DNA from: an uncultured Acidobacteriaceae bacterium | GTDB lineage: Bacteria > Acidobacteriota > Terriglobia > Terriglobales > Acidobacteriaceae | Assembly: GCA_963765025.1 (NCBI GenBank) | Contig: CAVXVM010000106.1 | Span: forward strand, 49,017-113,016 | Direction: 5' to 3' | DNA: 64,000 nt | Shown: in pieces, positions 34,613-58,401 of the stretch | Position numbering within the stretch: the first letter of the stretch is position 1 | Layout: each line of letters opens with the position of its first letter | Made by a program: the position numbers and the translations under genes | The notes under the pieces: model-generated | The model's database searches: none | What the model was told of the DNA's origin: nothing | Seen by the model: the letters and a program-made list of their open reading frames with translations, nothing else

Positions 34613-34632
34613 GCAGAGTCTTTCGCTTTAGT

Positions 34633-35700: not shown

Positions 35701-35762
35701 ACGAGCAACTGTTCGCGAGCAGAAGTTGAGAATGGAAGAGACCTTTTAAAGGGGACTTGATA

Positions 35763-38045
35763 ATGGGAAACAGTGCGACCGTGCTCGAGCAATCGCCTCT
35801 CCGGCAGGACTATAGCCTGACCGGCGTCAACTCGGAGCTCGCCATCCAGAAAGGTCTTGCCGAAGCAGACTGGTATCAGTGCGCTGTGCCACGCGAAACG
35901 ATGCGCCAGTTGCTGGTTCGGCGCGATGGACCCGCAATCCGCGACACCGTGATCTGGTTTGCACTCATCATCGGCGCTGGACTTGCAACCTGGAAGCTGT
36001 GGGGCTCCTGGTGGGCGCTGCTTCCCTATGCGATTTACTGCGTGCTTTATGCCTCCACCTCCGATTCGCGCTGGCACGAGAGCAGCCACGGAACTGCATT
36101 CAAGACGGACTGGATGAATAATGCTCTTTACGAGATCGCTTCGTTCATGGTCATGCGCGAGTCGACCGTCTGGCGGTGGAGTCATAACCGCCATCACAGC
36201 GACACCATCATCGTTGGCCGAGACCCTGAAATCGCCGTGCCACGGCCACCGGATTTGAAGGCAATCGTTCTGACGTTCCTCGGTGTGCGCGCTTATCCAA
36301 ATTACTTCCCGGCCGTCTTGAGGCACTGCCTGGGCCGAATGTCCGCAGCCGAAAAGACCTTCATCCCCGAAACAGAATTCCCCAAGGTCTATCTGAGAGC
36401 GCGTATCTATTTCCTCATCTATGCCTCGGCGATCGGCATTGCAATTTACGAACGCAGCATCTTCCCGGTCATGCTCGTGGGGCTTGCTAGTCTGTTTGGC
36501 TACTGGCTCATGCCCATCTACGGGATGACGCAACATGCAGGCCTGGCGGAGAACGTGCTCGACCACCGGCTCAACTGCCGAACGGTGTACATGAATCCGA
36601 TCAACCGTTTTTTCTACTGGAATATGAACTATCACGTCGAGCACCACATGTTCCCGCTGGTTCCCTATCATGCGTTGCCGCGACTGCATGCTGTGGTCAA
36701 GGAGGACTGCCCCACGCCCTACGCCAGTATCCCCGCCGCGTGGCGCGAGATTATTCCTGCCCTGCTCAGGCAAACGAAAGATCCGGCCTACCATGTCAAG
36801 CGACAGTTGCCACCGCCCAGGAGGCACATGCGCGAGGCATTCATCGTGTCGAAGGCCCAGACGGATGCCGAGGGCTGGATCGACATTTGCGCGGCAACAA
36901 GCCTTGGGCAGGGCGATGCACTGCGCTTCGACCATGGCAAGAAGTCCTACGCGCTTTATCGCGATGAAGCCGGCGGCTTATTCGCGACCGACGGATTCTG
37001 CACGCACGGTAATACGCATCTCGCAGACGGCCTTGTGAAAGGAAAGATGATCGAATGCCCCAAACACAACGGGCGCTTCAATTTGATTGACGGCTCACCG
37101 GCGCGCGCGCCTGTCTGCCGCGGCCTTGCGACCTATCCTGTCGAGGAGTGGAACGGACGAATTCATATCAACATCGTTCGCGCTGGAGGCGTGGGGGCAC
37201 GCGCACAAGAGGCATTCAAGTTTCGCGTGGTCAGCAACAGAAGCGTTGCCACGTTTATCAAGGAGCTTGTTCTTGAACCTGAAGACGGCACGAGGGCCAT
37301 TCCTTTCACGCCGGGAGATTATCTGCAATTCGACATTCCCACGTATGACTCGATTCGCTTTCGGGATTTCGATATCCCTGAGCCCTTTGCAACTGTGTGG
37401 AGGAATCAGCACATCTTTGATCTTGTGGCACGTAATCCGGAATCGGGTCGTCGCAACAACTACTCGCTGGCGAGTAACCCGCAAACCGAGCGCCAACTGC
37501 GCTTCAATGTGCGGATTGCCACGCCGCCTCCCGGACAGGACTGCGCGCCCGGCGCCGGTTCCAGCTACGTTTTTTCGCTCAAGCCGGGGGACATCGTTTC
37601 AGCCATCGGCCCGTTCGGTGATTTCCATATCAAGCCCACGCAGCATGAGATGGTTTATATCGGCGGAGGCGCCGGCATGGCTCCGCTGCGCGCGCATCTT
37701 GCCCACTTGCTTGAAAGCCAGGGGACCTCGCGCAAGATCAGCTACTGGTACGGAGCGCGCTCGCGACAGGAGATCTTTTACGAGGAGTATTTTCACCAAT
37801 TGTCCGCTGCTCACGGAAATTTTTCGTTTCACCTTGCGCTTTCTTCGCCGCTGGCTGAGGATGGTTGGACCGGACCGACCGGCCTCATTCACGAGGTCGT
37901 CCTGGAGCACTATTTACGCACGCACCCGGCTCCCGAGGCGGTCGAATACTACCTGTGCGGGCCACCCATGATGATCAAGTCGTGCACCAGGCTGCTCGCC
38001 GGGCTTGGCGTGCGCGAGCAACAGATCGCTTACGACGAATTCTAG
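35763..38045 (+). CDS. Three-domain fusion: membrane fatty-acid-desaturase-family di-iron oxygenase + Rieske [2Fe-2S] + FNR-type FAD/NAD(P)H reductase
   Basis: His boxes HESSHG, HNRHH and HVEHHMFPLVPYHALP with TM segments (about aa 1-340). Rieske CTHGNTH...CPKHNGRF (about aa 365-470). FNR motifs RNNYSLAS (RxYS), GGGAGMAPL, YYLCGPPMM (about aa 480-760). The RBS AAAGGGGA precedes ATG 35763. Confidence 0.85.
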   Translation: MGNSATVLEQSPLRQDYSLTGVNSELAIQKGLAEADWYQCAVPRETMRQLLVRRDGPAIRDTVIWFALIIGAGLATWKLWGSWWALLPYAIYCVLYASTSDSRWHESSHGTAFKTDWMNNALYEIASFMVMRESTVWRWSHNRHHSDTIIVGRDPEIAVPRPPDLKAIVLTFLGVRAYPNYFPAVLRHCLGRMSAAEKTFIPETEFPKVYLRARIYFLIYASAIGIAIYERSIFPVMLVGLASLFGYWLMPIYGMTQHAGLAENVLDHRLNCRTVYMNPINRFFYWNMNYHVEHHMFPLVPYHALPRLHAVVKEDCPTPYASIPAAWREIIPALLRQTKDPAYHVKRQLPPPRRHMREAFIVSKAQTDAEGWIDICAATSLGQGDALRFDHGKKSYALYRDEAGGLFATDGFCTHGNTHLADGLVKGKMIECPKHNGRFNLIDGSPARAPVCRGLATYPVEEWNGRIHINIVRAGGVGARAQEAFKFRVVSNRSVATFIKELVLEPEDGTRAIPFTPGDYLQFDIPTYDSIRFRDFDIPEPFATVWRNQHIFDLVARNPESGRRNNYSLASNPQTERQLRFNVRIATPPPGQDCAPGAGSSYVFSLKPGDIVSAIGPFGDFHIKPTQHEMVYIGGGAGMAPLRAHLAHLLESQGTSRKISYWYGARSRQEIFYEEYFHQLSAAHGNFSFHLALSSPLAEDGWTGPTGLIHEVVLEHYLRTHPAPEAVEYYLCGPPMMIKSCTRLLAGLGVREQQIAYDEF

Positions 38046-38055
38046 AAAGGCCGGA

Positions 38056-38982
38056 ATGAGATCCCCTACAGGTTTCCTAAATGACGGTTCAGCCGATGCC
38101 CCAAAGCTCCTTGTCTATTTGAACCTGGATAACCTCGTCGATTTGCGCGAAGATAGCTCATGGCCACATCTTGACGGCTTGGCCCGGTACCAGCGCCTGG
38201 TTGGGGATGGTTTTGAAGGCGTTCAACTCACGACGAATGACCCTCCGATCGTCCATGCACCCGTGCCACACTGCGGCCTGGACAGGATCAACTCACCGGC
38301 AGAGGCTGATGAAGTCGCAGCCGGACACGCGGAGCGTGGCGATCTCTGCATCACAGTTCACGCTGGATGGGGACTCGAAGACGATGACGCAACATTTCGG
38401 CTCGCGGAAGCGATACTTACCGCCTCCAGTAAACACAGATTACCCATCTTCATCGAGACGCATCGCGCCACGATCACCCAGGATTTGTGGCGCACTGTGC
38501 AGATCACGAAGAAGTTCCCGGAGGTTCGCTTCAACGGAGACTTCAGTCACTACTATTGCGGGCAGGAACTCGTGTATGGCGACTGGAAGAGCAAGCTTGC
38601 ATTCATGGAACCCATCTTCGATCGGGTTGGATTCTTGCATGGCAGAATCGCCAGCCCCGGCTGCATGCAAGTGTCCATCGATTCAGGCCTGACTTCCCGG
38701 CCACTGCAAGCCCACGGCGATATCAATTATCTTGACCATTTCAAAGAGTTGTGGACGCGCGCCATGCTGGGATTTCTCCGCAGTGCTCATCGAGGAGATG
38801 TCCTCATCTTCGCACCCGAACTGCTCTCGGGAAGGCATTATTACGCTCGCATGTTTCCCAATGCCTCTGGTCAACTTGCGGAGGAAAGCGACCGCTACGC
38901 TCAAGCTCTGCTGTACAAGGACCTGGCCCGCGCCTGCTTTGCTGAGGCCCTGGAGCAAGCATCAAGGAGTGTGGCTAAGTGA
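38056..38982 (+). CDS. Xylose-isomerase-like TIM-barrel protein (sugar phosphate isomerase/epimerase family), tentative
   Basis: The pattern ITVHAGWG / IFIETHRATI / FNGDFSHYY / GFLHGRIA / IFAPEL resembles the AP_endonuc_2 fold. ATG 38056 lies 8 nt after the upstream stop. Confidence 0.5.
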   Translation: MRSPTGFLNDGSADAPKLLVYLNLDNLVDLREDSSWPHLDGLARYQRLVGDGFEGVQLTTNDPPIVHAPVPHCGLDRINSPAEADEVAAGHAERGDLCITVHAGWGLEDDDATFRLAEAILTASSKHRLPIFIETHRATITQDLWRTVQITKKFPEVRFNGDFSHYYCGQELVYGDWKSKLAFMEPIFDRVGFLHGRIASPGCMQVSIDSGLTSRPLQAHGDINYLDHFKELWTRAMLGFLRSAHRGDVLIFAPELLSGRHYYARMFPNASGQLAEESDRYAQALLYKDLARACFAEALEQASRSVAK

Positions 38983-40343
38983 AACCGCCGATCAATTTGC
39001 GCTATGTCATTTTCTTAGGCAGTACCGCTGCACTGGGAGGCCTGCTCTTCGGATTCGACATCGCAATCATCACCGGTGCTGGTCCATTTATCACCCGTGA
39101 ATTCGCATTGAGCGATATCGGCCTCGGCTGGGCTTTCAGTTCATTGCTGTTTGGATGCGTACTGGGTTGTTTCATCGCAGGAAGGCTCACAGACAGGTAT
39201 GGACGCAAGAAGCTGCTCCTGGTTGTCGCGGCGCTGTTTGCCCTGACATCCATTGCCACCGCCCTGGCGCCTGGCTTTACAGCGTTTGTTACTGCGCGAT
39301 TTCTGGGAGGCCTGGCGGTCGGCGGCGTCTCTCTCCTATCTCCCATGTATGTGTCGGAGGTTTCTCCTCCGACCATCCGCGGCCGCATGGGCACTCTGTA
39401 CCAGATGTCGATCATCACCGGCATCATCGTGTCCTACGGCATCAACTACCTGCTGCGAAATACCGGGCCGAATAATTGGCGATGGATGTTTCTAACCGGA
39501 GTTGTGCCATCGGCGGTGTTTTTGATCTTCATCGCGCTCGCTCCCGAAACGCCGCGCTTTCTCGCACTGACTGGAAAACTGCAAGAGGCGTTTGCCTTGC
39601 TTGAACGCATCGGCGGAGCCGAGAGTGCGCGCACGCAAATATCCGAGATCGCCGCCACCATTCACACGGAACCGCAGACTTGGTACGCGCTCATGCGGCC
39701 AGGTGTTCGCCGCGCACTATCGGTCAGTGCGGGTCTTGCAATCCTTATTCACATCTCGGGAATCAACACCATCGTCGACTATGCCCCAGCGATTTTTCAG
39801 TCGGCCGGATGGAAAGTGGATGGCGCTTTAGCGTCAACATTCATCGTTGGCCTGACTGAGTTTCTCTTTACAATCGTCTCTTTCTGGGTTATCGATAGGT
39901 ATGGACGCAAGCCGCTCTATATTGTTGGCTCGCTCGGCATGGCGTTCTCATTACTTCTGCTTACCGCGACAGTGATGGCCGGCCGTTTCCACGGAACCCT
40001 GGTTCTGGTCCTGATTTTGACCTACCTGGCGTTCTTCGCGTCCTGCATAGGGCCGGTATTTTGGACGCTCGTTCCGGAGATATTCCCGAACGACGTGCGC
40101 GGGATGGCAATGACGGTTCCGGTGCTGATCCAGTGGGTTGCCAATGCGATCGTCGTGCTTCTCTTTCCTTATGCGTTCCATGTGATTGGCAAAACGTTTA
40201 CCTTCAGCTTTCTCGCGGCGATGGCGCTCGGCCAGGGGATCTTTGCATGGTCTTTCGTACCAGAAACGAAGAACAAGCGCCTGGAGGAGATCGAAGAATA
40301 CTGGACCAATCCCAGAAAAGCCCCATCCAGTATTCGGCTCTGA
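38979..40343 (+). CDS. MFS sugar porter family transporter
   Basis: 12 TM segments. GRLTDRYGRKKLL, PETPRFL, IDRYGRKPL and PETKNKRLEEIE signatures. The GTG start overlaps the upstream stop. Confidence 0.9.
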   Translation: MKPPINLRYVIFLGSTAALGGLLFGFDIAIITGAGPFITREFALSDIGLGWAFSSLLFGCVLGCFIAGRLTDRYGRKKLLLVVAALFALTSIATALAPGFTAFVTARFLGGLAVGGVSLLSPMYVSEVSPPTIRGRMGTLYQMSIITGIIVSYGINYLLRNTGPNNWRWMFLTGVVPSAVFLIFIALAPETPRFLALTGKLQEAFALLERIGGAESARTQISEIAATIHTEPQTWYALMRPGVRRALSVSAGLAILIHISGINTIVDYAPAIFQSAGWKVDGALASTFIVGLTEFLFTIVSFWVIDRYGRKPLYIVGSLGMAFSLLLLTATVMAGRFHGTLVLVLILTYLAFFASCIGPVFWTLVPEIFPNDVRGMAMTVPVLIQWVANAIVVLLFPYAFHVIGKTFTFSFLAAMALGQGIFAWSFVPETKNKRLEEIEEYWTNPRKAPSSIRL

Positions 40344-40410: not shown

Positions 40411-41697
40411 TCACCTTGCTCCATTAAATTCATGCACGGCATCGAGCATGGCGACAATATTCTCAACCGGCGTTGCTGCCTGCACGTTGTGAACGGTATT
40501 GAACACGAATCCTCCATTCATTGAGAAAACCTCGCACCTTTGCATCACCTGTTCTCTCACTTCAGCGGGTGTTCCGAATGGGAGAACTCTTTGCGTGTCG
40601 ACTCCCCCTCCCCAGAAGACGAGGCGATCTCCGAACTCGGATTTCAATTGCCTGGGGTCCATTCCTGTCGCGGAACACTGCACCGGATTGAGAATGTCGA
40701 ACCCAGCCTCGACGAGAGATGGAAGAAACTTGAAGATTGCACCGCAGGAATGTTTGAAGGTCTTCCATTGCGTGTGCTTGTGAACCCAATCATTGACTTG
40801 TTTGTAGTAGGGAAAGTACAAATCATTGAAGGTTTTTACAGAGCAGAAGGCGGACGTCTGAGTTCCGAAATCCGTGCCGCAGATGAAGGCCGCTTGTATG
40901 CTGTTGCCGATTGCCGCGTGAATTTTTTCAAGATTCAGGATGGCTGTCTCGCATTGGCGTTCAAATACCTTATGGATATAATCCTGCCTGCTCCTGGTGG
41001 AGACGTACCACTCAGCGACGTCGCGAATGCCCCTGGGGTGCTTGAGCGAAGGGCCCGGCACCAATGCGATATCGCCGAATGCAGTGCCGCCAAAGGTGGC
41101 GATCACTCCACGGCCCGTCAGGGCGGCCGCATGCGTGGCTCGAACAATATGGTCGAGGTCGGCCTGCGAGATCAGGCCATACTCCTCCAGATTATCCTCG
41201 GGATTTAGTCTTTCTTCGTCGATTGGGTCCTGGCGGACGATGCAGTCGAAGAAATGGCCGCCACTTGGCATGCGCCCGCTCGGAGCAACCGTAGTGTCGC
41301 CTTCCGGGTAGATCAGAGTGCCGCCGTCAGAGTCCATCGAGGTGTTGAAGTCCCTTGCGACCTGCACGTCGAGTCCGTTCAATCTCCACGGTTTCCATTC
41401 ATCCGCAGGAAATCCAAACATGGTATTGCGCGCGAAGACGCCGACCACATCAAGCCGCATCGCCTCGATCAGATCTTCATCCAAGAGCCCCAGCATCTGG
41501 AATGGCTCGTGGACCCGCACGGGGCGCTTTTCAAGTCCGTAATAGTCACGCAGCGCAGCCACGCAGCTCACATGCATTCCAGTCGTTGGCGTTCCTCCGA
41601 AGTCAATTGGAATTCGGTCGGGCTGCGTGTGGTTGAGAGTTGCGATGATCCGCTCAAGGCTTCCTGTCTTCTCGATCGTGGCAGTCATTGTATTCAC
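40411..41697 (-). CDS. URO-D-family methyltransferase (MtaA/MT2-like)
   Basis: 428 aa. N-terminal PDRIPIDFGG and a HSCG...VQC arrangement resembling the MtaA Zn site (HxC...C). It is the last gene of the corrinoid operon. Confidence 0.75.
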   Translation of the reverse strand: MNTMTATIEKTGSLERIIATLNHTQPDRIPIDFGGTPTTGMHVSCVAALRDYYGLEKRPVRVHEPFQMLGLLDEDLIEAMRLDVVGVFARNTMFGFPADEWKPWRLNGLDVQVARDFNTSMDSDGGTLIYPEGDTTVAPSGRMPSGGHFFDCIVRQDPIDEERLNPEDNLEEYGLISQADLDHIVRATHAAALTGRGVIATFGGTAFGDIALVPGPSLKHPRGIRDVAEWYVSTRSRQDYIHKVFERQCETAILNLEKIHAAIGNSIQAAFICGTDFGTQTSAFCSVKTFNDLYFPYYKQVNDWVHKHTQWKTFKHSCGAIFKFLPSLVEAGFDILNPVQCSATGMDPRQLKSEFGDRLVFWGGGVDTQRVLPFGTPAEVREQVMQRCEVFSMNGGFVFNTVHNVQAATPVENIVAMLDAVHEFNGAR

Positions 41698-41730
41698 TCC
41701 TTGCTCTTATCTTTTTCCTGACGCGTATCG

Positions 41731-43278
41731 TTACCGCTCGCGTGTGTCTGCAATTTTCGAGTTGTTGTATGTCTCCGCCTCTTGGCTATGGTCATCCGCC
41801 GCGGGAAACCTCATGCAGTTCGCGAACTCGTCCTGGAAATCAATGTCGGTGGCGAGGCTCACGTGCTCGATCGGAGGCAGCGCGCTTTCCCTGGAGGCGA
41901 CCAGGAGCATTTTTGCCCCTCGGAGCGCAGTGTTGCCGGCCGCGTAAACCCGTTCGCGGTGCGCCTCGAGCAAGCCGATACGGAGTGCGCTTTCAATTTG
42001 CACATAGTTGCCAAAGGCGCCCGCGAGATGGATGCTCTTGAGATCGCCGGCAGTCGCGCCGAGGCGTTTGAGAAGCAGCTTGAATCCCGAGGCGATCGCG
42101 CCCTTTGCCAGTTGCAACTCGCGAACGTCGGCCTGACAAAGGACGACGGGGTGGGCAATGGGAAAGAATTTTGTGCCGTTGGCGATCCGTCCCGAAGGAA
42201 GAATAGCCCCTGTGCGAAGGCCGACAGCGATGGCGTCAACAAGTCCGCTGCCGCAGATGCCGCGTGGCTCGACGTCGCCAACGACATCTGCATGGATCTC
42301 TTCGCCGCAAAGCGACACGTGAGAAATGGCTCCAGTGGCCGCGCGCGTGCCCATCCGAATGCAGCCAGCTTCAAAGGCGGGCCCCGCTGCGGCAGAGGCG
42401 CAAACGATGCCGAAGCGGTTGCCGATAGCGATTTCGCCGTTGGTTCCAAGGTCGACCAAGGCCATGAGATGGTCACTTTGTGCAATGCCGGTAGCGAGGA
42501 TTCCGGCAAGGATGTCAGAGCCAACAAACCCTCCCAGACAGGGTGCGAAGCGAATTGTGCAGGTTGCCGGCAGATGCCAGCCTAGATCTTGCGGGCGGAA
42601 TGTCTGACCTACGAGATTCGGTGAGGCGAAGGGGGCATGCGAGAGCGGTTCAACGTCGCAGCCGGAGAACAGATGATGCATTACGGTGTTGCCAACGAGG
42701 ATGACCTCGGCAACTTCCGGCTCGCGGCCGCGGGCCAGGCGCGTGATGAGCTGGCCGAGGAGTACGCGAAGCATGGTCGTCAGATCATTGCCCTGGAGCG
42801 CGGCGCGAATTCTGCTCATGACGTCGGAGCCGAATGAGGCCTGGGGATTGAGCTCAGTTTCTACGGCTAGAACTTTGCCGGTAGCGAGGTCGAGGATTTG
42901 CGCGGCAATGGTCGTGGTGCCGAGATCGATTGCGATGCCGAGGCCGTGTTTTCCGGAACCGATGAGGCAAGCATCGTCGGTGAGGACATCCATGCGCCAC
43001 TGGCAGCACTCAAGGACCAGAGGCATGAGGGCGCGCGCCTGACAGGCGAGACGCCAGCCAAGGGCAAGCTGCTCGGGCAGGAAGGCCGTGCGGTCTGGGT
43101 CGGTGACAGGAAGGGAGCCGGAAAGGACGCGAACTGCGCACCCTCCACAGGTTCCGGTGCCTCCACAGGGAAATTCGATGCCTTGGCCTGAGAGTGCCTT
43201 GATGAGCTGCGTGCCGACAGGCGTTTCGATTTCCAACGCGAGCGGCTCCAGGCGAATGCGGACTTGATCCCTGCTCAT
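41731..43278 (-). CDS. Reductive activator of corrinoid proteins (RACo-type: 2Fe-2S ferredoxin + ASKHA ATPase / DUF4445)
   Basis: FPCGGTGTCGGCAV...LACQ ferredoxin motif, then GIAIDLGTTTIAAQ ASKHA phosphate-1 motif. ATG 43278 overlaps the upstream stop (ATGA). The ORF is open to 43359. Confidence 0.8.
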   Translation of the reverse strand: MSRDQVRIRLEPLALEIETPVGTQLIKALSGQGIEFPCGGTGTCGGCAVRVLSGSLPVTDPDRTAFLPEQLALGWRLACQARALMPLVLECCQWRMDVLTDDACLIGSGKHGLGIAIDLGTTTIAAQILDLATGKVLAVETELNPQASFGSDVMSRIRAALQGNDLTTMLRVLLGQLITRLARGREPEVAEVILVGNTVMHHLFSGCDVEPLSHAPFASPNLVGQTFRPQDLGWHLPATCTIRFAPCLGGFVGSDILAGILATGIAQSDHLMALVDLGTNGEIAIGNRFGIVCASAAAGPAFEAGCIRMGTRAATGAISHVSLCGEEIHADVVGDVEPRGICGSGLVDAIAVGLRTGAILPSGRIANGTKFFPIAHPVVLCQADVRELQLAKGAIASGFKLLLKRLGATAGDLKSIHLAGAFGNYVQIESALRIGLLEAHRERVYAAGNTALRGAKMLLVASRESALPPIEHVSLATDIDFQDEFANCMRFPAADDHSQEAETYNNSKIADTRER

Positions 43279-44021
43279 ACTGTGTCCACGATGCTGTCGC
43301 CGAGTGTTGCCCGGATGGTTTCGCCGGGCGCCACAACCAGGAAATGGGCCGCGTCCCATTCGTGGTCGACCAGGCGCTGGATCAGCTTAAGAGTGCCCTT
43401 GATTTCGTCGAAAGCCCAACCTTCCTTGCCGGCCTCGGCGCGTGCTTTGATGCGGCTGGGCTCGTCAGACGGAACGGCTGTGGAGATATAGGTGAGGCCT
43501 GAATAGTGACTGCGAAAGGCGTTGAATTGCTCGAATAAATAGGCGCCGTTTTCCTCGCCGTACTGGGCGGTCAACTCAGCGAGAGTGCGGCGCTCTCCAA
43601 GCGAAGTTTTTTGCGAGGTGAATGCAGGTTCGAGCATCATCCCTGGAGTCTGAAACTCAATCCATCCGGGCGAGCGATAGTAGACGCCAGGGTGATTTTG
43701 AAAGTAATCCTCATAGGTGGGATGGCCGCCCATGAGCAAGCCGATGCAATCGTGCACGCGGGGAAGAACCAGTGGCGTTTTTCCTGCGCGCAACCCTTCA
43801 GTGCCGCGGCCGCAGAGCGCGTAGCCGAGAAGGATCGCGTCGAAGCCGGCATTGTCGGCTGCGTCGATACGTTCTTGCAGGTGTGGGCGCATGCCTACGC
43901 CAAGATCGTGCAGGCCCATTGGCACGATCTCGATTTCGATCGAATGGGGTGAGCGGGAGACAACGCGCTCCATCTCGCGCGTGAAGACCTGACATGTGAT
44001 GGCTTTAAAGCGCATGTTCAT
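43275..44021 (-). CDS. DUF1638-domain protein
   Basis: 248 aa. The family is recalled from its usual position next to corrinoid methyltransferase genes (AITCQVFTREME..., LLGYALCGRG, VHDCI). Confidence 0.65.
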   Translation of the reverse strand: MNMRFKAITCQVFTREMERVVSRSPHSIEIEIVPMGLHDLGVGMRPHLQERIDAADNAGFDAILLGYALCGRGTEGLRAGKTPLVLPRVHDCIGLLMGGHPTYEDYFQNHPGVYYRSPGWIEFQTPGMMLEPAFTSQKTSLGERRTLAELTAQYGEENGAYLFEQFNAFRSHYSGLTYISTAVPSDEPSRIKARAEAGKEGWAFDEIKGTLKLIQRLVDHEWDAAHFLVVAPGETIRATLGDSIVDTV

Positions 44022-44076
44022 TCAACGTCTCCCCATCGGCGGTGCCGTCGGGGCATGGAAGACTGGCTCGCCACGC

Positions 44077-45468
44077 CTACAGCCCATAACTCGCTTTGTC
44101 GTACAGGCTGCCATATTGTGCTTCGAGATCGACCAAGAGCGCGTCCTCTTCGGCCGGAAATCTCTCCAAGGCTTCGTCAATGCGCGCAAGCCATTGCAAC
44201 TCTTTTCGGGAGAGATGGAGTTTTTGCTCCGCAACGCCATCCTTCAGAACTTGAACTGCGGCGCGGCCGGCGGCAATTACGCGATGGTACGGCGTGTCCG
44301 TCGTGACGATTGCGGCGGCGATACGAATTGTAGCGTCGGGTGAGAGTACGGCAGCCTGGGGGCTCAACCACTCGTCCGATGCCACCATCCAGTTGCGCAA
44401 TTGCAGGGCTCCGCCCGGAGCGCGGGCGGCCGTGTTCATCAACCGGCAATCGTAGGCAAGGAGTTCGGTATAGGCTTCCGGCGCGTTGCCGGAGAGCAGG
44501 CGCACATTCTGCACCGACTCGTTACTCCACAGGTCGCACATCGCGGCGGCGATGTTGCCAACGGGGCTGAAGTGCGCGCAACTGGCCGACTTGCCCTCCA
44601 TCGAAATTGGGCGGCCTGTAATTGCTTTGAGGATAGGTCCCTCGTAGGCGCAATCTTTCGATGGACCAACGGCGCCCTGCTCGAAGGCAGAGAGGCTGCG
44701 TACCGCGCTCATCGCGCGAACCACCGCGGCGAGCACCTCGGGAAGCATTTTCTGGTGGGCGAGTTGCATGGCGGTATTTGCGAATCCGCATGCGGAGTCG
44801 CCACCACTCACGACGCCGGGATGCGCCGCGCAGATCTCGCCAATCTGCGCCCACAGCCAGGACATATCTCTTGGGGCCAGCACCCCGAGGGCAAAGACGA
44901 TGCCTGAGAAATCCCCGTACATCAGCGCCTGGTCGTGGACCTCCTTACCGCCGATCGATTCGATGGAGAGGATGTCGGCTCCTGCCTCGGCGCATAGTTC
45001 CAACGATCGCTTGAGCCGCTGCCACGGTTGGCCCGTGCGCATCAAGGGCGGCTTTTGCTGATCGCGAATGTCGGTGGGTGTGACGCGCAGAGCGCAGGAT
45101 AGATGATATTTCTCATGCGCGGTTACGAGTTGCCTTTTGAGAACCGCGGTGATCTCTGCCCCCCACTCTGGATGGTCTGTCATGGGCGGCAGAAGTTCAA
45201 ATTCAAGGACGATGCCGGGAACGCCAAGCGAAACAGCGCGGCGCAGAATTTGCGATGCCATCTCGTCGTAGTGAGCCACAACGTCCGGCCAGGTCCCGGA
45301 CTCGATATTCATGGCCGGCAGGGTAAAGTTGACCTCAGGGAATACTTGGCCAGCACCAATGGTCAAGCCAAGGCCACAAGCAAGCGGAAGTGGACTTGCA
45401 CCGTACAGAAGCTCATCGGGACGTTGAACGGCGAGCGTTGAGTATTTGAGGAGAGTCTCGGTGATCAT
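44077..45468 (-). CDS. mtaB: Methanol:corrinoid methyltransferase MtaB homologue
   Basis: 463 aa. Colinear blocks match my recollection of Methanosarcina MtaB: EVNFTLP, VLEFELL, HPEWGAEI, CALRVTPTDIR, EAGADILSIESIGGKEV, GGDSACGFANTAM, RSLSAFEQGAVGPSKDCAYEGPILKAITGRPISMEGKSASCAHFS, LWSNESV, LAYDCRLMNTA, end ASYGL. Confidence 0.85.
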   Translation of the reverse strand: MITETLLKYSTLAVQRPDELLYGASPLPLACGLGLTIGAGQVFPEVNFTLPAMNIESGTWPDVVAHYDEMASQILRRAVSLGVPGIVLEFELLPPMTDHPEWGAEITAVLKRQLVTAHEKYHLSCALRVTPTDIRDQQKPPLMRTGQPWQRLKRSLELCAEAGADILSIESIGGKEVHDQALMYGDFSGIVFALGVLAPRDMSWLWAQIGEICAAHPGVVSGGDSACGFANTAMQLAHQKMLPEVLAAVVRAMSAVRSLSAFEQGAVGPSKDCAYEGPILKAITGRPISMEGKSASCAHFSPVGNIAAAMCDLWSNESVQNVRLLSGNAPEAYTELLAYDCRLMNTAARAPGGALQLRNWMVASDEWLSPQAAVLSPDATIRIAAAIVTTDTPYHRVIAAGRAAVQVLKDGVAEQKLHLSRKELQWLARIDEALERFPAEEDALLVDLEAQYGSLYDKASYGL

Positions 45469-45471
45469 TAC

Positions 45472-46110
45472 TTATGCCACTGCCAGGAGACTCTTGACCA
45501 GGCCGACCGCGCCATTGGCATTCTCACTGTAGCCGTCAGCGCCAATCTCTTTGGCGTACTGACTGGTCACGGGCGCACCGCCAAGAAGGACCTTTACCTG
45601 GGTGCGTACGCCAGCCTTGCTTAGCGCGTCAATGGTTGTCTTCATCGCGGGCATGGTTACGGTAAGCAGCGCCGACATGCACACGATATGGGGTTGACGC
45701 TCCTTGACGGCTGCGACAAACGCCTCTGGCGAAACATCCGCGCCAAGATCGATCACTTCGAAGCCGCTGCCCTCGAGCATGGAGGCCACAATGTTCTTGC
45801 CGATATCGTGAAGGTCGCCCTTGACTGTTCCGATGATGATGCGCACAGCCATCTTCTGCCCGGAGGCAACGAGCAGCGGCTTGATCAGTTCCATGGCGCT
45901 CTTCATGGCGCGACCAGCAAGCAAAAGCTCGGGGACAAAGTACTCCTCGGCTTCGAAGAGCTTTCCGACTTCGTCCATGGCGGGCACCATGGAGTCGGCA
46001 ATTAGCTGCATTGGTTCCGCGCCCTCTGCCAGAGCCATTTCAGTGGCAGCGTGTGCCCTTTTCGCATCGCCGTTGAGAATCGCTTCGAAGAGTTCTTTAG
46101 ACTGTGCCAT
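45472..46110 (-). CDS. mtaC: Corrinoid (cobalamin-binding) protein, MtaC-like
   Basis: N-terminal B12-binding_2 helical cap plus Rossmann domain with GDLHDIGKN (DxHxxG), SALLT and LLGGAP. Confidence 0.9.
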   Translation of the reverse strand: MAQSKELFEAILNGDAKRAHAATEMALAEGAEPMQLIADSMVPAMDEVGKLFEAEEYFVPELLLAGRAMKSAMELIKPLLVASGQKMAVRIIIGTVKGDLHDIGKNIVASMLEGSGFEVIDLGADVSPEAFVAAVKERQPHIVCMSALLTVTMPAMKTTIDALSKAGVRTQVKVLLGGAPVTSQYAKEIGADGYSENANGAVGLVKSLLAVA

Positions 46111-46708
46111 ATTCTTCTTCCTCTAAACTGAAGTCGCCAGGATCAATCGGTCCGCGCATACGCGCGGCCGGCATGAATCTCTGGATGTAGTGACCGAGGG
46201 TGAAAATCATCACGCTGCCTATTGCCTCTGAGGTTATGCTATTGCGAAAAAACGGGAGTGCCGCAGAGTAGCAGGCTCCGAGCCCACCTGGAGTCTTGGG
46301 ATACATGCCCCATTCAGCCCACACAGTGAGGTTGCTCACCACAAAGAATGACAGCGAAGCAAACAAGGAAGATCCAAGTACCCGGCGGGATGAAATGGAA
46401 CCACCCAAGACCGTGCCACCGAGGAACAAGGCAACCAGGTACCAGATCCATGTAACGGCATGACCTGGAGTGAGTGCGAAGCCGTACTGGTGCGTGGTTA
46501 AAAAGATGTCGACGGCCACAAGAGCGAGAAGCGGGATGCCGAATTCCCGCCTGGGCCTACACGCTCCAAAAAAGAGAAGGCATGAGAAAACAGGTATCAG
46601 GTTATTGGGGCAGATGAGACTCAAACGAAGCACTGCGGCCCCTGCGATGAGAATGTACGGAAGGACCACAAGTTGTTTTCCACTGAGACGCTTGATCGTG
46701 AATATCAT
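46097..46708 (-). CDS. DUF6580-like membrane protein (putative corrinoid/vitamin uptake component)
   Basis: About 6 TM segments. NNLIPVFSCLLFFGA and SNLTVWAEWGMYPKTPGGLGACYSAALPFFRNS resemble DUF6580 as I recall it. GGAAGG lies 5 nt before ATG 46708. Overlaps mtaC by 14 nt. Confidence 0.55.
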   Translation of the reverse strand: MIFTIKRLSGKQLVVLPYILIAGAAVLRLSLICPNNLIPVFSCLLFFGACRPRREFGIPLLALVAVDIFLTTHQYGFALTPGHAVTWIWYLVALFLGGTVLGGSISSRRVLGSSLFASLSFFVVSNLTVWAEWGMYPKTPGGLGACYSAALPFFRNSITSEAIGSVMIFTLGHYIQRFMPAARMRGPIDPGDFSLEEEEYGTV

Positions 46709-47292
46709 GAATTCCTTCCGTGCCACTCTCGGGCGGCCTTTTGGCCGCCGCTGAATGCTGCCTTGCATTCTCATCGCTTAGCATTGCGCCAGACCCTCGA
46801 CGGGCCGCTCGCTGGTGCGACAGCGTGAGGCAACCCAGCCGAGAAGATGCTCGGTTAAGTGAGATACTAACCCCAAACTACAGATCGCTAACTTGGATGT
46901 CTTCTCCATCCGTGTCTAATAGTGGTTAATTCTTGCGCGATCCTCGAACGAGCCCAGCGTCGCGACAACTGCCAGGCAGGTCCGGAACAGATGGATTGCC
47001 AAAGCCCCTTTAAACCGCGTCAATTGTCTCTTCGATGGGTCGCCCCGCCCCTTGATTGAAATTTTCGCGTCCCGCATTGGATTAGTTCGAGACAGCTACC
47101 GCCGCAAGCGGATCCCAGCCTCCGAGCGCTGAACCCTAGCTCCTTCCGGGCGCGCCTCGGGAGTAGAAGGACTTCATCGTTACGCTCCAGATGTCCTTCT
47201 ACCCTGCATGCTCAAAAACCTTCCCCCCATGCACCCGGTTGGTTTTACTCCGCCCTCGACCAAGGATGTCTTCACGCTTTTCGTATACGAAA

Positions 47293-49575
47293 TCAGGCCG
47301 AATGCGGGTAGAGTGTCTCGACCCTTCCCCCGGGCCCTTTCACGCGATCATTTCCATTGCGTTTGGTTTCCGGGGGATGCCGCAACGTTACGGAAACGGA
47401 ATCTGTCGTTGGAGACAAGGTGACGATTCCATCCTCTGCATTGACGGTTCCTGTACTCGCTGAGGCAATGTTGCCTTTGAAGGCAGGCAAGTTGAAGATG
47501 ACGTCTCCGTTCCTTACATCTCCCCAAATCCGCAGCTCAATTGTGGATGGACCCGAGGTGATCCTGAAACTGATCTTGTGGCCTTCATTCACATTCACAT
47601 TTGCCCACTCCACGACACTTCCCGGTTCCAGCCAGTAGTCTGGGATGCCGCGGCCGATGATGATCGTGCCGTCGTTTTTGACGGAGGCGCACATTTGAAG
47701 CAATGCCTGCTTGGTAAAGCTGGCTCCCCAGCTATCAAGATTTCCATAGCTTACGGGTGGCACATACAACCCGACCCAGGCATCCCTTCCCTTGTATTCG
47801 AATGCCTCAGACCAGTTGTAGGGCGCGCACTGGTTCTCAAGCTGAAACTCGAGATTTTTGGCCACCTCCGTCCTGTATGTGTCGGAGTAGAGACACTGCA
47901 GCCCGGCACTACAGTTGTACGCGGTCCCGTAAGTCACTTGCCCCCACCACGTGCCCCAGCTTCCTTCGGGGATTCCTTTTCTATCCCGCACCGCCAGGGC
48001 GTGGCGAATGGAATCGTCAAACTTTTCTTTCCAGAATCCGCCGAGTTCGAATCCCTTCAAATATGCGCCCCAGGGAAATGTGCTCAAGGCTCCCGAGTAA
48101 GGAACCCAGGAATAATCTGAATCGCCATATCGCTCCAAGGTGACATCGTCGAACCCGCCCTCGTAATAGTCCGTGTGCCGGCGTGCACTGGTCTGGCTCA
48201 GAGCCCTGTTCAGTCTATCGTTCAAATCGGCCATCTCCCTGGCGGCCCATTCCGCTTCGTCCGTCTCGCCAAGACGCTTGCATATATATTGATATGCCTG
48301 AAGCCCATGAAGTGCCGACCAGTTGTCGCAGAGCAAATAGTCTCCATCGTCCGCCCAGTTTTCGAAATCCTGCGATTTCTTCATCAGCCCATAATGCTCT
48401 TTATCGTTGAATGACCTCAACGCGTGTATATTGCGAACGGCTTTTTTGAGTTCCTCCCGAACCGGCACGGTAAAGTAGGCCAGGTCTCCGGTGCTGCGCA
48501 GATACTCGGCGTACGGAATGAGGTACTTGCCGAGCGTGTCTTCGTAGATGGGATCCGTCGCCTCCCTGCCTCTCCAGGTGGTGCTGTTGGAGGCCTTGAA
48601 ATACTTGCTGGCCAACATCCTTTTTGCAATTTCGAAGTCTCCCTCTCTCATATATTGATCGACATAATTTGGAGCATCGTGGGAAAAGGGCTGGTCGTAG
48701 TTGTCATTGTTGAAAGGATTCCTGGGTGCCGCGTGAATCTCATAGTCCTCCCCGTTCTTCACCATGTTTTCCCAGGTCGTGATTTGAATGGATTTGTACA
48801 TTTCGACCATTCCGGCCACGGGAAGGCTGATTGGCTCCGCCAGGCCTGCCATGCGGCCGTTCCAATACCTCGCCATGGCCTCGTAGTTGGAGTCGAACCC
48901 ACCTGCCGATTTCAACACCGCGGGATCAACCGGAGAGCCCGCGGCAAATGCCACGAAATCCCTCGTAACCGAATCCCCCGGGTTTACGGAAAAATCGAAG
49001 TACATGTCAGCATTGCTCTGGCCTGTGCACTCTGCTGTAAGCGGTATCTCTATGTCCGGGCGTGAACTCACGTTGAGCCGAACAACCTTGGGAACCGAGC
49101 CTGTACTTGTGACACGGACGCGCGAGTACACTGCGGTGAGACGGTCAGCAAGGACACGATGGGCGAAGTGCTGAATCTCCACGCGAAACGCTCCGGCCAT
49201 CCACTGGGAGATGGGACACGGAAGATAACCATCCCTCAAAAACCACTTGATTCGTGATTTGCGGTCGAGGGCGAACTCGTCCGGGACATAGGTCGCTCCA
49301 TCCACTGTAACCGTGAACTGGATAACGTCTTCCAGTCCCGGCGCGACTCCTCCCCCCATGAAGGTCCACGATTTTGGATGATCGTTCTCCCATCCGATAT
49401 ACAACCATTTCAAAAGATCATAGTCGTAATATGGCGATCTGCCTGCACGTTTGGGCTCTTCCTGGCCAGGCACTGGAAGTGCGGCTTCAGGCACCGCATT
49501 GACACATTGAGCTCGCACAACGAGGCCAGCCGCAATGGTCTGTAACCCGCACTTCACGAAACCGCGTCGGTTCAT
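47293..49575 (-). CDS. Tat-exported hypothetical protein, probably a glycoside hydrolase
   Basis: 760 aa with twin-arginine signal MNRRGFVKCGL. No family recognised by eye. Last gene of the glycan operon. Confidence 0.6.
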   Translation of the reverse strand: MNRRGFVKCGLQTIAAGLVVRAQCVNAVPEAALPVPGQEEPKRAGRSPYYDYDLLKWLYIGWENDHPKSWTFMGGGVAPGLEDVIQFTVTVDGATYVPDEFALDRKSRIKWFLRDGYLPCPISQWMAGAFRVEIQHFAHRVLADRLTAVYSRVRVTSTGSVPKVVRLNVSSRPDIEIPLTAECTGQSNADMYFDFSVNPGDSVTRDFVAFAAGSPVDPAVLKSAGGFDSNYEAMARYWNGRMAGLAEPISLPVAGMVEMYKSIQITTWENMVKNGEDYEIHAAPRNPFNNDNYDQPFSHDAPNYVDQYMREGDFEIAKRMLASKYFKASNSTTWRGREATDPIYEDTLGKYLIPYAEYLRSTGDLAYFTVPVREELKKAVRNIHALRSFNDKEHYGLMKKSQDFENWADDGDYLLCDNWSALHGLQAYQYICKRLGETDEAEWAAREMADLNDRLNRALSQTSARRHTDYYEGGFDDVTLERYGDSDYSWVPYSGALSTFPWGAYLKGFELGGFWKEKFDDSIRHALAVRDRKGIPEGSWGTWWGQVTYGTAYNCSAGLQCLYSDTYRTEVAKNLEFQLENQCAPYNWSEAFEYKGRDAWVGLYVPPVSYGNLDSWGASFTKQALLQMCASVKNDGTIIIGRGIPDYWLEPGSVVEWANVNVNEGHKISFRITSGPSTIELRIWGDVRNGDVIFNLPAFKGNIASASTGTVNAEDGIVTLSPTTDSVSVTLRHPPETKRNGNDRVKGPGGRVETLYPHSA

Positions 49576-49659
49576 TTCAATTCTCCAAATGGCGAAGTTG
49601 CGTTAAGGACCTCAGTTAACTCCGGGAAGCTCGATGATCTTTTCGGAGTTGTTTCGATC

Positions 49660-50991
49660 TTAGCTTCGCAAAAAGCGCTCATTGAGGGTGCGATGCCATT
49701 GCACGTTTTTCCAATTTGCGAACTGGGGTTGGGCGTAGTTGAAAGGCGTCCAGCCCCAGAACTTGCAGGCAATTGCATCGTCTACTGACCACTTTGCCCA
49801 ATCCAGCAGCCAACCCCAGTCCAACCTTGGATCGTCGATGTAGTACCACGTAGCCCACGATTCAGAAGTCGTCAACGGCATGCCGCGCCGCTCGGCCCAT
49901 CCCGCAAACTGCGACGCCTTGAATCTCTGGCGCGCGCGCAACATCGGCGCCATAGCCGCTGCGGTCTTGATCGAGCGATCGGAAAACTCTTTGAACCAAC
50001 GGTCGTTCTGGAAGATTCCGTCATCAACAAACTCATCGAAGCGCGTTCGCTCAGTCCAGCGCGGGTCGGCATCAGCATAGAAGTGCACATCGAGGCAGTC
50101 GAGTTCAAGCGGCACGTCGAGCCAGCGCAAGTCGCCGTGAATCGACGTGGTGAAGCGCAACTCGGGAAACTCCCGCCGCAACAGGCCGAACGCCTTGTTG
50201 ATCTCACCGGCGAGGAAGGAAATCTGGGCTGGCGAGAAGATGTCGCCCTCATTGAAGCTGGCGCCTGTCTCCTTTTTTAATCTCTCCTGCAAGTCCGGGA
50301 AGAAGTAGGGAGTTTCGTTGGCGATGTCGACATAGATAATTCGATCCAATCCGAATCGTTTCTTCCACTCGGTCAACGTGACAGCCCACATCTCCGCTCC
50401 TTCCGCCATGTTCGCAGGCTTGCGAAGAGCAAAAGGCACAGGGGGAGATGTTGGAGATCCAGGCATGAACCACCAACCGCTCAATGTGTAGTGGAGCGAA
50501 CTCCGCTTTTGCAACTTCTCGATGAATTCCGTGACCCAAACTGCCACCGGGCCTTTCACGGCTGTATTCCAATTCCATGGCATATAGGGCTGGTGCGGAT
50601 CGGGCCATTCCAGAATGCGTTCGGGCTTGCTGAAGTCGAGCCACTGCGGCATCGGATCAATGCGCAAAGTGTTGTAGCCCCGCTCGACTGCCTCATCCAG
50701 AACACGGTCATAATCCGCGAAGCTGCCGCCGGGCTGATGACGGAGCGCGTACGCCACATCCCACATGGCAATCGTCAATCGCCTAGGATTCAGGTGATCG
50801 CGCATGTCGTAGTCACCAATCCGACTTATCGCGGCGTGGGAAGACCTATCGCTTGCTACTTGCATAGGTAATTGAGCGGAGCCCCGAGCGCTTTGCGCGG
50901 CCTCCTGGGCAGCGACATCCCTGCCGCTGGTCAACGCCGTCAACGCACCAGCTGTTCCGTATGCAATGAGTTCACGCCTCGATACTGGCAT
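49660..50991 (-). CDS. Tat-exported TIM-barrel (cellulase-like) hydrolase family protein, tentative
   Basis: 443 aa with signal MPVSRRELIAYGTAGAL. GYNTLRIDPMPQW is suggestive of a clan GH-A-like fold. Confidence 0.5.
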   Translation of the reverse strand: MPVSRRELIAYGTAGALTALTSGRDVAAQEAAQSARGSAQLPMQVASDRSSHAAISRIGDYDMRDHLNPRRLTIAMWDVAYALRHQPGGSFADYDRVLDEAVERGYNTLRIDPMPQWLDFSKPERILEWPDPHQPYMPWNWNTAVKGPVAVWVTEFIEKLQKRSSLHYTLSGWWFMPGSPTSPPVPFALRKPANMAEGAEMWAVTLTEWKKRFGLDRIIYVDIANETPYFFPDLQERLKKETGASFNEGDIFSPAQISFLAGEINKAFGLLRREFPELRFTTSIHGDLRWLDVPLELDCLDVHFYADADPRWTERTRFDEFVDDGIFQNDRWFKEFSDRSIKTAAAMAPMLRARQRFKASQFAGWAERRGMPLTTSESWATWYYIDDPRLDWGWLLDWAKWSVDDAIACKFWGWTPFNYAQPQFANWKNVQWHRTLNERFLRS

Positions 50992-51123
50992 TTCTTTGTT
51001 CTCCTTCTATCGTCAGAGCGTTCCTGCGAGATAGTTCAAATCCAATCCTTGTCTTTCCCATACGAGCGCTCACAAGGCCTCTTAGAAATTCCGCGACTCC
51101 ATCAACCGCGAGTAACGAGCAAT

Positions 51124-53178: not shown

Positions 53179-53304
53179 TTACATCCCCTTGCAGATCATA
53201 AGAGATTTGTATGGATTGGCCCCGCCAGGTTCATACACCAATCGATCCGTTGTTCTCTGGGGCGCGAGGTCGAACTCCAACAGCCGCCAGTGTGAGTTGC
53301 GATT

Positions 53305-55401: not shown

Positions 55402-55516
55402 CAGGGGTCCTCTCTATCTTGGTCCTTCTCAGATCTCAGTCCCAGTGCCGCATCTGCTACATCGGAAGACCGCCTGGATCGGTCCGTTTCCGAGACAAAT
55501 AACCCGTTCCCCAGGT

Positions 55517-55548
55517 AAAAAATCCCGCCCTGCGGCACTTCTCGCAGG
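55517..55548 (-). terminator. Candidate intrinsic terminator after the beta-helix gene
   Basis: Minus strand: CCTGCG-AGAAGTGC-CGCAGG hairpin (55529-55548), then GCGGGA and T6 (55517-55522). The U-tract is offset by 6 nt. Confidence 0.3.
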
Positions 55549-55573
55549 CAAAAGTAAACTCCCACCCTTCGGG

Positions 55574-58294: not shown

Positions 58295-58401
58295 TTTGCT
58301 TTACGCCCGAGCGTGGATCGGAGGCATCTCTGACCGTCCCATGCTGCACACCAGGACGGTCAAGAGGGCACGTGCAGGCGAGAGGCCTGCACGTACCATG
58401 G

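Follow-up and report, generated by a model that had tools for sequence, protein, structure and literature searches.

In a 64,000-nt stretch of DNA from an uncultured bacterium of the Acidobacteriaceae (contig CAVXVM010000106.1; the whole stretch is called the window here, and operon coordinates are window positions), six consecutive genes on the minus strand appear to form a conserved B12-dependent methyl-transfer operon of peat Acidobacteriaceae, built on a methanol:corrinoid methyltransferase pair. We assign this reading a probability of roughly 0.7. The co-directional open reading frames (ORFs) span positions 40411–46774 and encode, from 5′ to 3′, a DUF6580 membrane protein, an MtaC-type corrinoid protein, the methyltransferase MtaB (MT1), a DUF1638 protein, a RACo/RamA-type reductive activase and a divergent protein of the UroD superfamily that we call U428, a working label used also for its gene and family (Table 1). 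A first-pass annotation, made from the sequence alone, had predicted these families, and Pfam searches place all six proteins above the gathering thresholds. Gene content, the family membership of five of the six proteins, the conservation of ligand residues and synteny are direct observations, and the family E-values, together with a gene order kept in dozens of species-level genomes, put the operon far beyond chance.

First, the methanol:corrinoid methyltransferase is a true full-length member of the MtaB family. It scores 526.9 bits against PF12176 (cut-off 25; E = 6e-158), with residues 8–454 aligned to profile positions 3–449 of 460. A search of the Protein Data Bank (PDB) returned one solved relative, Methanosarcina barkeri MtaB (2i2x_A; E = 4e-97, 41% identity over 440 columns). 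Residues E170, C227 and C273 align to E164, C220 and C269 of that structurally characterised enzyme, its reported zinc ligands in the numbering of Hagemeier et al. 2006. All three are invariant in 75 aligned sequences (the window protein, 73 relatives and 2i2x_A), among 71 invariant positions of 463, which bears out the earlier suggestion that the zinc ligands are kept.

Second, the neighbouring corrinoid protein, predicted as MtaC-like from its GDLHDIG motif, has the expected cap and Rossmann domains (B12-binding, 108 bits; B12-binding_2, 78 bits) and carries the corrinoid-protein motif D-x-H-x-x-G at residues 99–104 (D99-L-H101-D-I-G104).

Third, the operon encodes a pair of proteins for which a role in B12 reactivation has genetic support elsewhere. 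The activase matches all three domains of its family above cut-off (Fer2, 41 bits; Raco_middle, 140 bits; RACo_C_ter, 198 bits), giving the architecture of an N-terminal [2Fe-2S] ferredoxin domain followed by middle and C-terminal ASKHA ATPase domains; a C-x5-C-x2-C...C pattern is visible, and the protein also matches RACo from C. hydrogenoformans (PDB 3zyy_X; E = 6.7e-67). The DUF1638 protein scores 109 bits against PF07796 and has no PDB relative detectable by sequence search. Both identities agree with the initial assignments. In Phaeobacter inhibens, genetic evidence shows that a split B12 methionine synthase depends on two proteins, one of the DUF1638 family and one of the ferredoxin-DUF4445 (RamA-like) family, and these families occur together across Alphaproteobacteria (PMC5764234). 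In aerobic Ruegeria pomeroyi, proteomics finds DUF1638 and RamA-like proteins induced with the corrinoid-dependent MtgBCD system, a precedent for corrinoid methyltransferase systems outside strict anaerobes (PMC12478193). On the strength of this genetics and proteomics, and by analogy, we read DUF1638 and the RACo-type protein of the window as a probable two-protein module for Co(II)-to-Co(I) repair.

Fourth, the gene set recurs across species. Database relatives of MtaB number more than 5,500 at E ≤ 1e-20; those that carry names are from Terracidiphilus metagenome-assembled genomes (MAGs). A scan of a genome collection with one genome per species returned 80 loci, from Acidobacteriaceae/Terracidiphilus (Stordalen Mire, SPRUCE and Danish soils), Solibacter/Bryobacteraceae and, in a few cases, Planctomycetes, among them the cultured Aquisphaera insulae JC669 (L076); all acidobacterial loci retrieved are MAGs. 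The core MtaC-MtaB-DUF1638-RACo is syntenic in about 30 Acidobacteriaceae species from peat. In the full-flank set, 33 loci of Acidobacteriaceae type that have about 8 kb to either side, all 33 contain MtaC, 30 DUF1638, 29 RACo, 26 any UroD-type gene and 20 U428, with DUF1638 beside RACo in 29–30; in the wider set of 45 related loci, MtaC is found in 42 and DUF1638 in 37. The common gene order is [DUF6580]-MtaC-[U356]-MtaB-[U351]-DUF1638-RACo-[U428], where U356 and U351 are two further UroD-type families, both missing from the window. The best-matching locus, in Stordalen MAG fen_409 (L001), has an MtaB 95% identical to that of the window and shares the whole neighbourhood, and a JGI metagenome contig (L144) is about 99–100% identical across the shared proteins. 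These relatives support the Acidobacteriota host that had been proposed and identify it as a Terracidiphilus-like peat bacterium of the Acidobacteriaceae. Two genomes of this survey stand out in other ways. MAG fen_409 has three mtaB paralogues (L001–L003; 95, 86 and 85% identical to the window MtaB), each with different UroD-type partners. Aquisphaera insulae JC669 has an MtaB homologue of 67–68% identity with no corrinoid gene nearby and may offer an experimental handle.

The packing of the genes is evident from the sequence itself. The tight minus-strand arrangement, the 14-nt overlap of the DUF6580 and MtaC genes (ATGGCACAGTCTAA), the ATGA shared by the DUF1638 stop and the RACo start, and the motifs GDLHDIG, SIESIGGKE, DSACGF and SKDCAYE, all listed in the first-pass annotation, are present where it placed them. 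Spacings are 3 nt between MtaC and MtaB, 55 nt between MtaB and DUF1638 and 42 nt between RACo and U428. Three gene starts differ from those of the longest ORFs. The RACo gene is corrected to position 43278 from 43359. For U428, an AAGGAG box 8 nt 5′ of the ATG at 41688 argues for this start instead of the GTG at 41697, and the resulting 425 residues are also typical of its homologues. The DUF6580 start at 46708 carries a Shine–Dalgarno-like GGAAGGA motif, with the longest ORF extending to 46774; most homologues have 185 residues, versus 203 from position 46708. The operon is slightly richer in G+C (0.60) than its flanks (about 0.55). Regulatory signals were sought upstream: no cobalamin riboswitch reaches the Rfam gathering score in the whole window or E ≤ 1 in 46600–47400, no sigma-70-like site lies on the minus strand of 46709–47292, and promoter and terminator scans found no more sites than in shuffled sequence.

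The first gene of the operon encodes a predicted membrane protein. The DUF6580 assignment (PF20221) is borne out, and an AlphaFold model built from 63 sequences (pLDDT 88.5) has six transmembrane helices. A literature search found nothing on this family, whose relatives carry the NCBI name 'putative transport protein', and a PDB sequence search gave nothing significant. The best Foldseek match of the model is cobalamin-bound BtuM, a solitary ECF-S-like transporter of cobalamin (8c7p; E = 0.046, TM 0.59/0.66, 15% identity), followed by the ECF S-components ThiT, FolT, RibU and PanT. The DUF6580 model resembles BtuM in size and in its six helices, and the DUF6580 gene adjoins that of a B12 protein: wherever it was found, in 16 of the 45 related loci, it lies directly upstream of mtaC. 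Together with the 14-nt overlap into mtaC, the weak BtuM match and this position make corrinoid uptake or delivery our best guess for its role.

The sixth gene is where the first-pass interpretation is weakest. U428 matches the Pfam URO-D model with 59 bits, over the C-terminal half only both of the protein (residues 227–424) and of the profile. A PDB sequence search with phmmer gave no significant match, MtaA included. Its AF2 model (pLDDT 76, pTM 0.82) has a beta-rich insertion at about residues 57–160, and the top 22 Foldseek matches are M. mazei MtaA and uroporphyrinogen decarboxylases (E = 2e-9 to 8e-8, probability 1.00, TM 0.45–0.68, 13–16% identity). Aligned to M. mazei MtaA (4ay7/4ay8) by Foldseek, U428 is 13–14% identical and about 85 residues longer. 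A profile of close homologues (A1) found nothing in the PDB, whereas one of the wider family (A3) found MtaA (4ay7; E = 3e-8), UroD (8e-7) and the MT1 CdmB (0.016). The residues H313-S-C315 align with the H-I-C of a canonical MtaA-like protein, and His400 replaces the third cysteine. C338, 23 residues after C315, presumably occupies the position of the glutamate ligand of MetE. H313, C315, C338 and H400 are invariant in 66 close homologues. The model places U428 in the UroD superfamily at the level of fold. By its identity to MtaA, its length and its family-model scores (below), it is not a member of the MtaA family. With 786 clusters at 50% identity (E ≤ 1e-30), mostly of 400–425 residues, it represents a new and large subfamily with no characterised member. 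Membership in the CdmB/MtvB O-demethylase clade was considered and rejected, the CdmB match (E = 0.016) being confined to the C-terminal 58 residues. Elsewhere in peat and soil metagenomes, U428 genes form a separate three-component corrinoid system in an operon without MtaB (L149:9893-14982; also L151, L153 and L127). In a further locus (L139:9881-13661), the genes of U428 and a corrinoid protein precede one for a Pyr_redox_2 and Rhodanese fusion that resembles a CoA-disulfide or persulfide reductase, which suggests a sulfur or thiol link for some members of the family.

What follows is our inference as to the substrate, which way the methyl group moves and where it goes, and what DUF6580 and U428 do. 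The zinc site of MtaB (E170, C227 and C273) would polarise the C–O bond of methanol, the substrate expected from homology. The Co(I) corrinoid of MtaC, held base-off/His-on through D99-x-H101-x-x-G104, would accept the methyl group to give CH3-Co(III)-MtaC. Accidental oxidation to Co(II) would be reversed by the RACo-type activase with ATP and electrons from its [2Fe-2S] domain, jointly with DUF1638, and the BtuM/ECF-S-like DUF6580 protein, translationally coupled to mtaC, would probably supply or handle the corrinoid. U428 would then remove the methyl group from CH3-Co(III)-MtaC. The putative metal site of U428 (His-x-Cys, Cys, His) points to an acceptor of the thiol type and away from tetrahydrofolate (THF). 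We favour U428 as this demethylating partner (MT2) because MtaA is its nearest relative by fold and profile, because its H-x-C aligns with the MtaA-type motif and because it is the only candidate for demethylation in an operon otherwise carrying predicted cofactor uptake and repair; we hold this role, with a thiol-type acceptor, at close to even odds. There is a small chance that U428 does something other than this or the substrate-side role considered below.

Several findings weigh against this reading. No physiological or biochemical work and no activity data on an acidobacterial member were found in the literature. MtaB scores 438.3 bits against the archaeal equivalog model NF040651 (NCBIfam; cut-off 720), so that it is a member of the family and not the archaeal equivalog. 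The corrinoid protein falls under every curated and equivalog cut-off: its best NCBIfam models are MtgC_2 (207.5 bits, cut-off 370) and TIGR02370 (194.8 bits, cut-off 215), its scores against the archaeal MtaC equivalogs are 128.8 (MtaC_Meth) and 134.3 bits (MtaC2; cut-offs 420–450), and its best curated model is thus the glycine-betaine corrinoid protein MtgC, not archaeal MtaC. With both proteins under the equivalog cut-offs, their substrate is identified by homology only. The match of DUF6580 to BtuM is weak (E 0.05). In the wider U428 family H313 alone is invariant; C315, C338 and H400 are not kept. On the acceptor side, neither a THF-type MT2 (about 30 kDa, pterin-binding, related to AcsE/MetH) nor C1-oxidation genes were found among the operon and window ORFs scanned, and 7 of the 33 full-flank loci have no UroD-type gene, which means that the methyl acceptor enzyme can be encoded elsewhere.

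The strongest competitor makes U428 a second MT1, or a bifunctional MtsA-like enzyme. In place of methanol, it would use another compound to methylate MtaC, for example an O-methylated sugar or cyclitol, a methoxylated aromatic compound or a methylated sulfur compound, and the true MT2 would be encoded elsewhere. We regard this as a serious possibility, held somewhat short of even. It draws on a U428-anchored metagenome scan, counted over 40 loci of at least 12 kb, in which MtaB occurs in 5, a corrinoid gene in 15, and DUF1638 and RACo in 13–15. U428 directly precedes a corrinoid protein (CoP) gene of its own in at least 13 loci, as in MT1-CoP pairs, and in L149, L151 and L153 the order is U428-CoP-DUF1638-MtaA-like URO-D (339 aa, 193 bits)-RACo with no MtaB, so that U428 takes the usual place of an MT1. 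Operons of relatives also include canonical MtaA-like genes (about 350 aa, H-x-C...C); there is none in the window. Tandem U428 paralogues in L010–L012, the extra length relative to MtaA with an early-barrel insertion as in the 429-aa MT1 CdmB (PMC13222342), and the Pyr_redox_2 and Rhodanese neighbour in L139 point the same way. So do the recurrence of U428 beside an MFS sugar porter, ORF325, an aldose epimerase and a MocDEF-like oxygenase (see below) and the expression of 'methoxy' mtxB genes by Acidobacteriota of Stordalen Mire (PMC10805028). This alternative would leave the operon without an MT2 despite every other accessory, and the U428 family profile is nearer to MtaA and UroD than to CdmB. 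Since U428 may thus be an MT2 or a second MT1, the first-pass description of a complete set holds for the MT1, the corrinoid protein and the activator, and for the MT2 is plausible rather than established.

It is improbable that the operon encodes a complete pathway for methanol like that of acetogens or methanogens, with U428 as an MtaA-type MT2 passing the methyl group to THF for oxidation or assimilation. The UroD-superfamily fold, MtaA as the top structural and profile match, the retained H-x-C and the presence of U428 in 20 of the 33 full-flank operons are what such a pathway would lead one to expect. U428 nevertheless fails the MtaA/CmuA model TIGR01463 (33.8 bits, cut-off 235.4), PRK06252 (42.5 bits, cut-off 244) and MtaA_Meth (20.4 bits, cut-off 400), and its identity to MtaA lies below the 25% to a characterised coenzyme M (CoM) methyltransferase that has been used as the minimum for MtaA-like proteins (PMC10418091). 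The chemistry is also at odds with the pathway: the UroD-type MT2s that have been characterised methylate the thiol CoM (PMC10418091), whereas the bacterial THF-forming MT2s (the 'bacterial MtaA', CdmA, MtvA and MtqA) are proteins of about 30 kDa grouped with AcsE/MetH-type enzymes (PMC13391211, PMC13222342), of which the scanned ORFs have none. Given these scores and the scarcity of MtaB in U428 loci, the proposal that the sixth gene is a URO-D/MtaA-like MT2 is not supported in that form.

A biosynthetic role, in which a split MetH-like methionine synthase passes the methyl group of methanol through MtaC to homocysteine, also seems unlikely. In Phaeobacter the split methionine synthase has a DUF1638 and RamA-like pair for its reactivation, a single corrinoid protein of Ruegeria serves both demethylation and methionine synthesis (PMC12478193), and the MtgC-like score of MtaC and the putative thiol-type metal site of U428 would fit. 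A Pfam scan of recurrent neighbours in related loci (matching beta-lactamase-fold, RhaT, homocysteine S-methyltransferase, GT2, AraC, CstA, UxuA-like and Pyr_redox_2+Rhodanese proteins) found no linked THF-type MT2 or C1 genes, and the neighbours of distant Solibacter and Planctomycete MtaB genes were uninformative. It did find, next to the mta clusters of three relatives (L009; L021:4186-5253; and L070, there directly upstream of mtaB), a gene for homocysteine S-methyltransferase (PF02574, 211 bits), which hints at a methanol-to-methionine outlet and allows a methionine-synthase-like one as in Roseobacter. The gene occurs in only 3 of 80 loci and not in the window, and several mtaB paralogues per genome (three in fen_409) with marked in-situ expression fit catabolism better.

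A module converging on the operon from downstream (33641–40343) raises another possibility, although its membership in the mta system is uncertain. Its central gene fuses a membrane di-iron hydroxylase of the fatty-acid-desaturase type, a MocE-family Rieske domain (NCBIfam, 110 bits) and an FNR-type FAD/NAD reductase, and the product is possibly a self-sufficient MocDEF-like oxygenase, perhaps an O2-dependent O-demethylase of a methylated sugar or cyclitol. MocD, MocE and MocF reportedly have a demethylating role, as Bahar and colleagues are said to have described in 1998. We know of no description of a corrinoid-dependent route by which aliphatic sugar methyl ethers are demethylated. The three moc genes belong to the catabolism of the rhizopine 3-O-methyl-scyllo-inosamine (PMC10107442). 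Orthologues of the module recur beside mta/U428 genes in differently arranged loci (L001, L005, L007, L013, L015, L069, L085 and L094), and in L124 the order ORF325-U428-MtaC-MtaB-MFS runs on one strand. ORF325 has no match in Pfam, NCBIfam or the PDB and is found, 46–86% identical, beside U428, MtaC, MtaB or MFS genes in Acidobacteriaceae and Solibacter-type loci (L049, L054, L124, L134 and L137); a guess that it is a xylose-isomerase-like TIM barrel found no support from any tool and was dropped. From this recurrence, the mta/U428 genes, the porter, ORF325, the mutarotase and the oxygenase might together form a dual system for demethylating O-methyl sugars or cyclitols such as 4-O-methyl-glucuronate, moss 3-O-methyl sugars or pinitol-type inositols. 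It would have an O2 route through the fused di-iron oxygenase and a corrinoid route through U428 or the MtaB homologue acting as an aliphatic O-demethylase; we consider this a long shot.

That the MtaB homologue acts on some other small methyl ether or alcohol instead of free methanol, so that the annotation over-reads the family, is very unlikely: its score under the equivalog cut-off, an operon-linked sugar porter in L124, adjoining MFS genes in L019 and L036 and a suggestion, from work on ethanol, that MtaB-type enzymes can be promiscuous (PMC12450230) stand against an invariant ligand triad, 41% full-length identity to the methanogen enzyme and the methanol specificity of all characterised PF12176 members.

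Set beside characterised systems, the operon is of a known kind, MtaB/MtaC with an ATP-dependent activase, in a lineage for which genes and transcripts have already been reported. It departs from the characterised versions in an uncharacterised UroD-subfamily partner where those have one of the two known types of MT2, in the DUF1638 and RACo genes within the operon and in the BtuM-like membrane protein. In Methanosarcina (MtaB/MtaC, 2i2x; MtaA, 4ay7), as here, mtaB adjoins the gene of a D-x-H-x-x-G corrinoid protein and a UroD-superfamily protein is encoded alongside, and the MtaB proteins share the Glu/Cys/Cys positions. By contrast, the present host is bacterial and falls outside the lineages known to use CoM, its UroD-type protein is not MtaA (34 bits, 13–14% identity, 85 residues longer, third Cys replaced by His), its MtaC lacks the archaeal N-terminal extension, its activase is of the RACo type with a [2Fe-2S] domain, and DUF1638 and DUF6580 are additional. 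The MtaABC systems of acetogens and sulfate reducers (A. woodii, M. thermoacetica, E. limosum/callanderi and D. kuznetsovii) likewise encode MtaB and MtaC in one bacterial operon, use methanol derived from plant polymers and require an ATP-dependent activating enzyme. Theirs pass the methyl group through a THF-methylating MT2 of about 30 kDa into the Wood–Ljungdahl pathway, whereas the present operon has no such MT2 linked to it and belongs to a heterotroph that degrades polysaccharides.

The Roseobacter MtgBCD(E) system with RamA and DUF1638, and the split MetH of Phaeobacter, resemble the operon as modular corrinoid systems of heterotrophs that are neither methanogens nor acetogens, with the same two-protein reactivation set (Fer2+DUF4445/RACo and DUF1638) and the corrinoid protein that gives the best model for ours, MtgC. 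They differ in having an MttB-family glycine-betaine MT1 and pterin-binding and homocysteine-binding MT2s, where the present MT1 is MtaB and the reactivation genes lie inside the operon. Type 1 mlp clusters (Kountz & Balskus, PMC10418091) also combine bacterial UroD-superfamily methyltransferases with a corrinoid protein and a RACE/Ram activase, acting on a possibly sulfur-linked substrate; unlike U428, the Mlp proteins are at least 25% identical to CoM methyltransferases, and their clusters have no MtaB. The UroD-superfamily MT1s CdmB (9rui), MtvB, OdmB and VdmB share with U428 a length of about 430 residues, a TIM barrel with early-barrel extensions, genes that often adjoin that of a corrinoid protein and many paralogues; CdmB, which the U428 family profile matches weakly, has no metal site. 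DUF6580 differs from BtuM in the weakness of the match already noted and in that no riboswitch was found here.

The first-pass annotation described the system as physiologically uncharacterised in Acidobacteriota. This stands for physiology; as to the genes, Ellenbogen et al. (mSystems 2023) screened Stordalen Mire MAGs and reported acidobacterial mtaB genes, their transcription in both bog and fen, and competition of these Acidobacteriota with methanogens for methanol (PMC10805028). Bacterial mtaB has been noted in other MAG surveys too, and Terracidiphilus MAGs are active degraders of polymers and sugars in anoxic peat microcosms (PMC12203004). In peat, methanol that comes from plant polymers feeds methane production directly. 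Its capture by abundant heterotrophic Acidobacteriaceae through a B12 methyltransferase, if it takes place, would divert carbon from methanogens and raise the community's demand for corrinoids. The operon offers a compact test case for the use of corrinoid-bound methyl groups by a bacterium with neither the Wood–Ljungdahl pathway nor methanogenesis, and a reaction assigned to the U428 family would annotate thousands of genes.

Table 1. Coordinates of the operon genes, the upstream intergenic region and the convergent downstream module (window positions)
Feature	Position	Strand	Details
DUF6580 membrane protein	46097-46708	minus	203 aa; PF20221, 97-98 bits
MtaC-type corrinoid protein	45472-46110	minus	212 aa; B12-binding + B12-binding_2
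MtaB, methanol:corrinoid methyltransferase (MT1)	44077-45468	minus	463 aa; PF12176
DUF1638 protein, probable activase partner	43275-44021	minus	248 aa; PF07796
RACo/RamA-type reductive activase	41731-43278	minus	515 aa; Fer2 + Raco_middle + RACo_C_ter
U428, divergent UroD-superfamily protein, presumed corrinoid-dependent methyltransferase	40411-41688	minus	425 aa
Intergenic region, presumed operon promoter region	46709-47292	minus	about 580 nt; no ORF
AraC regulator	33641-34612	minus	domain match
Aldose 1-epimerase	34633-35700	plus	domain match
MocD-MocE-MocF-like fused oxygenase	35757-38045	plus	762 aa; domain matches
ORF325	38005-38982	plus	no family match
MFS sugar porter	38979-40343	plus	domain match

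Upstream of the operon and all on the same strand lies a glycan-degradation gene array (47293–62343) encoding a 760-aa protein, cellulase-like, GH63/MGH1-like and GH42 proteins, a beta-helix protein and a TonB-type outer-membrane protein, as expected of the glycan degrader first proposed. The further proposal, of a link to methanol released from methyl-esterified or methoxylated plant polymers, stays speculative: the beta-helix protein matches just two generic models, Beta_helix and NosD, and no window protein among those scanned matches a pectin-methylesterase model. The 760-aa protein (47293–49575, minus), directly upstream of the operon, has no family or PDB match and is kept only in the closest relative (L001). 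An 892-aa protein (24819–27497, minus), also encoded inside a glycan-utilisation array, has no significant family or PDB match, only a sub-threshold one to a GH38 C-terminal domain. GH2 domains on the minus strand are divided between two ORFs about 200 nt apart (1498–2220 and 2429–3355), one with the N-terminal sugar-binding part and the other with the TIM-barrel part, which suggests a frameshift, a pseudogene or an assembly error. Near mta clusters of three loci (L002:5208-6233, L060 and L069), a homologue of the L-rhamnose-proton symporter RhaT joins other sugar-transport genes.

Farther along the window, the plus strand of 9262–18825 encodes a carboxyltransferase, the small and large subunits of methylmalonyl-CoA mutase (with a B12-binding domain), MeaB and acetate kinase. 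This second B12-dependent enzyme, with genes of propionate/acetate fermentation type, is in line with corrinoid dependence and anaerobic capacity. Finally, at 4777–6889 (plus), a gene for an N6/N4 DNA methylase precedes a 380-aa ORF that matches no family, possibly as a restriction-modification pair.

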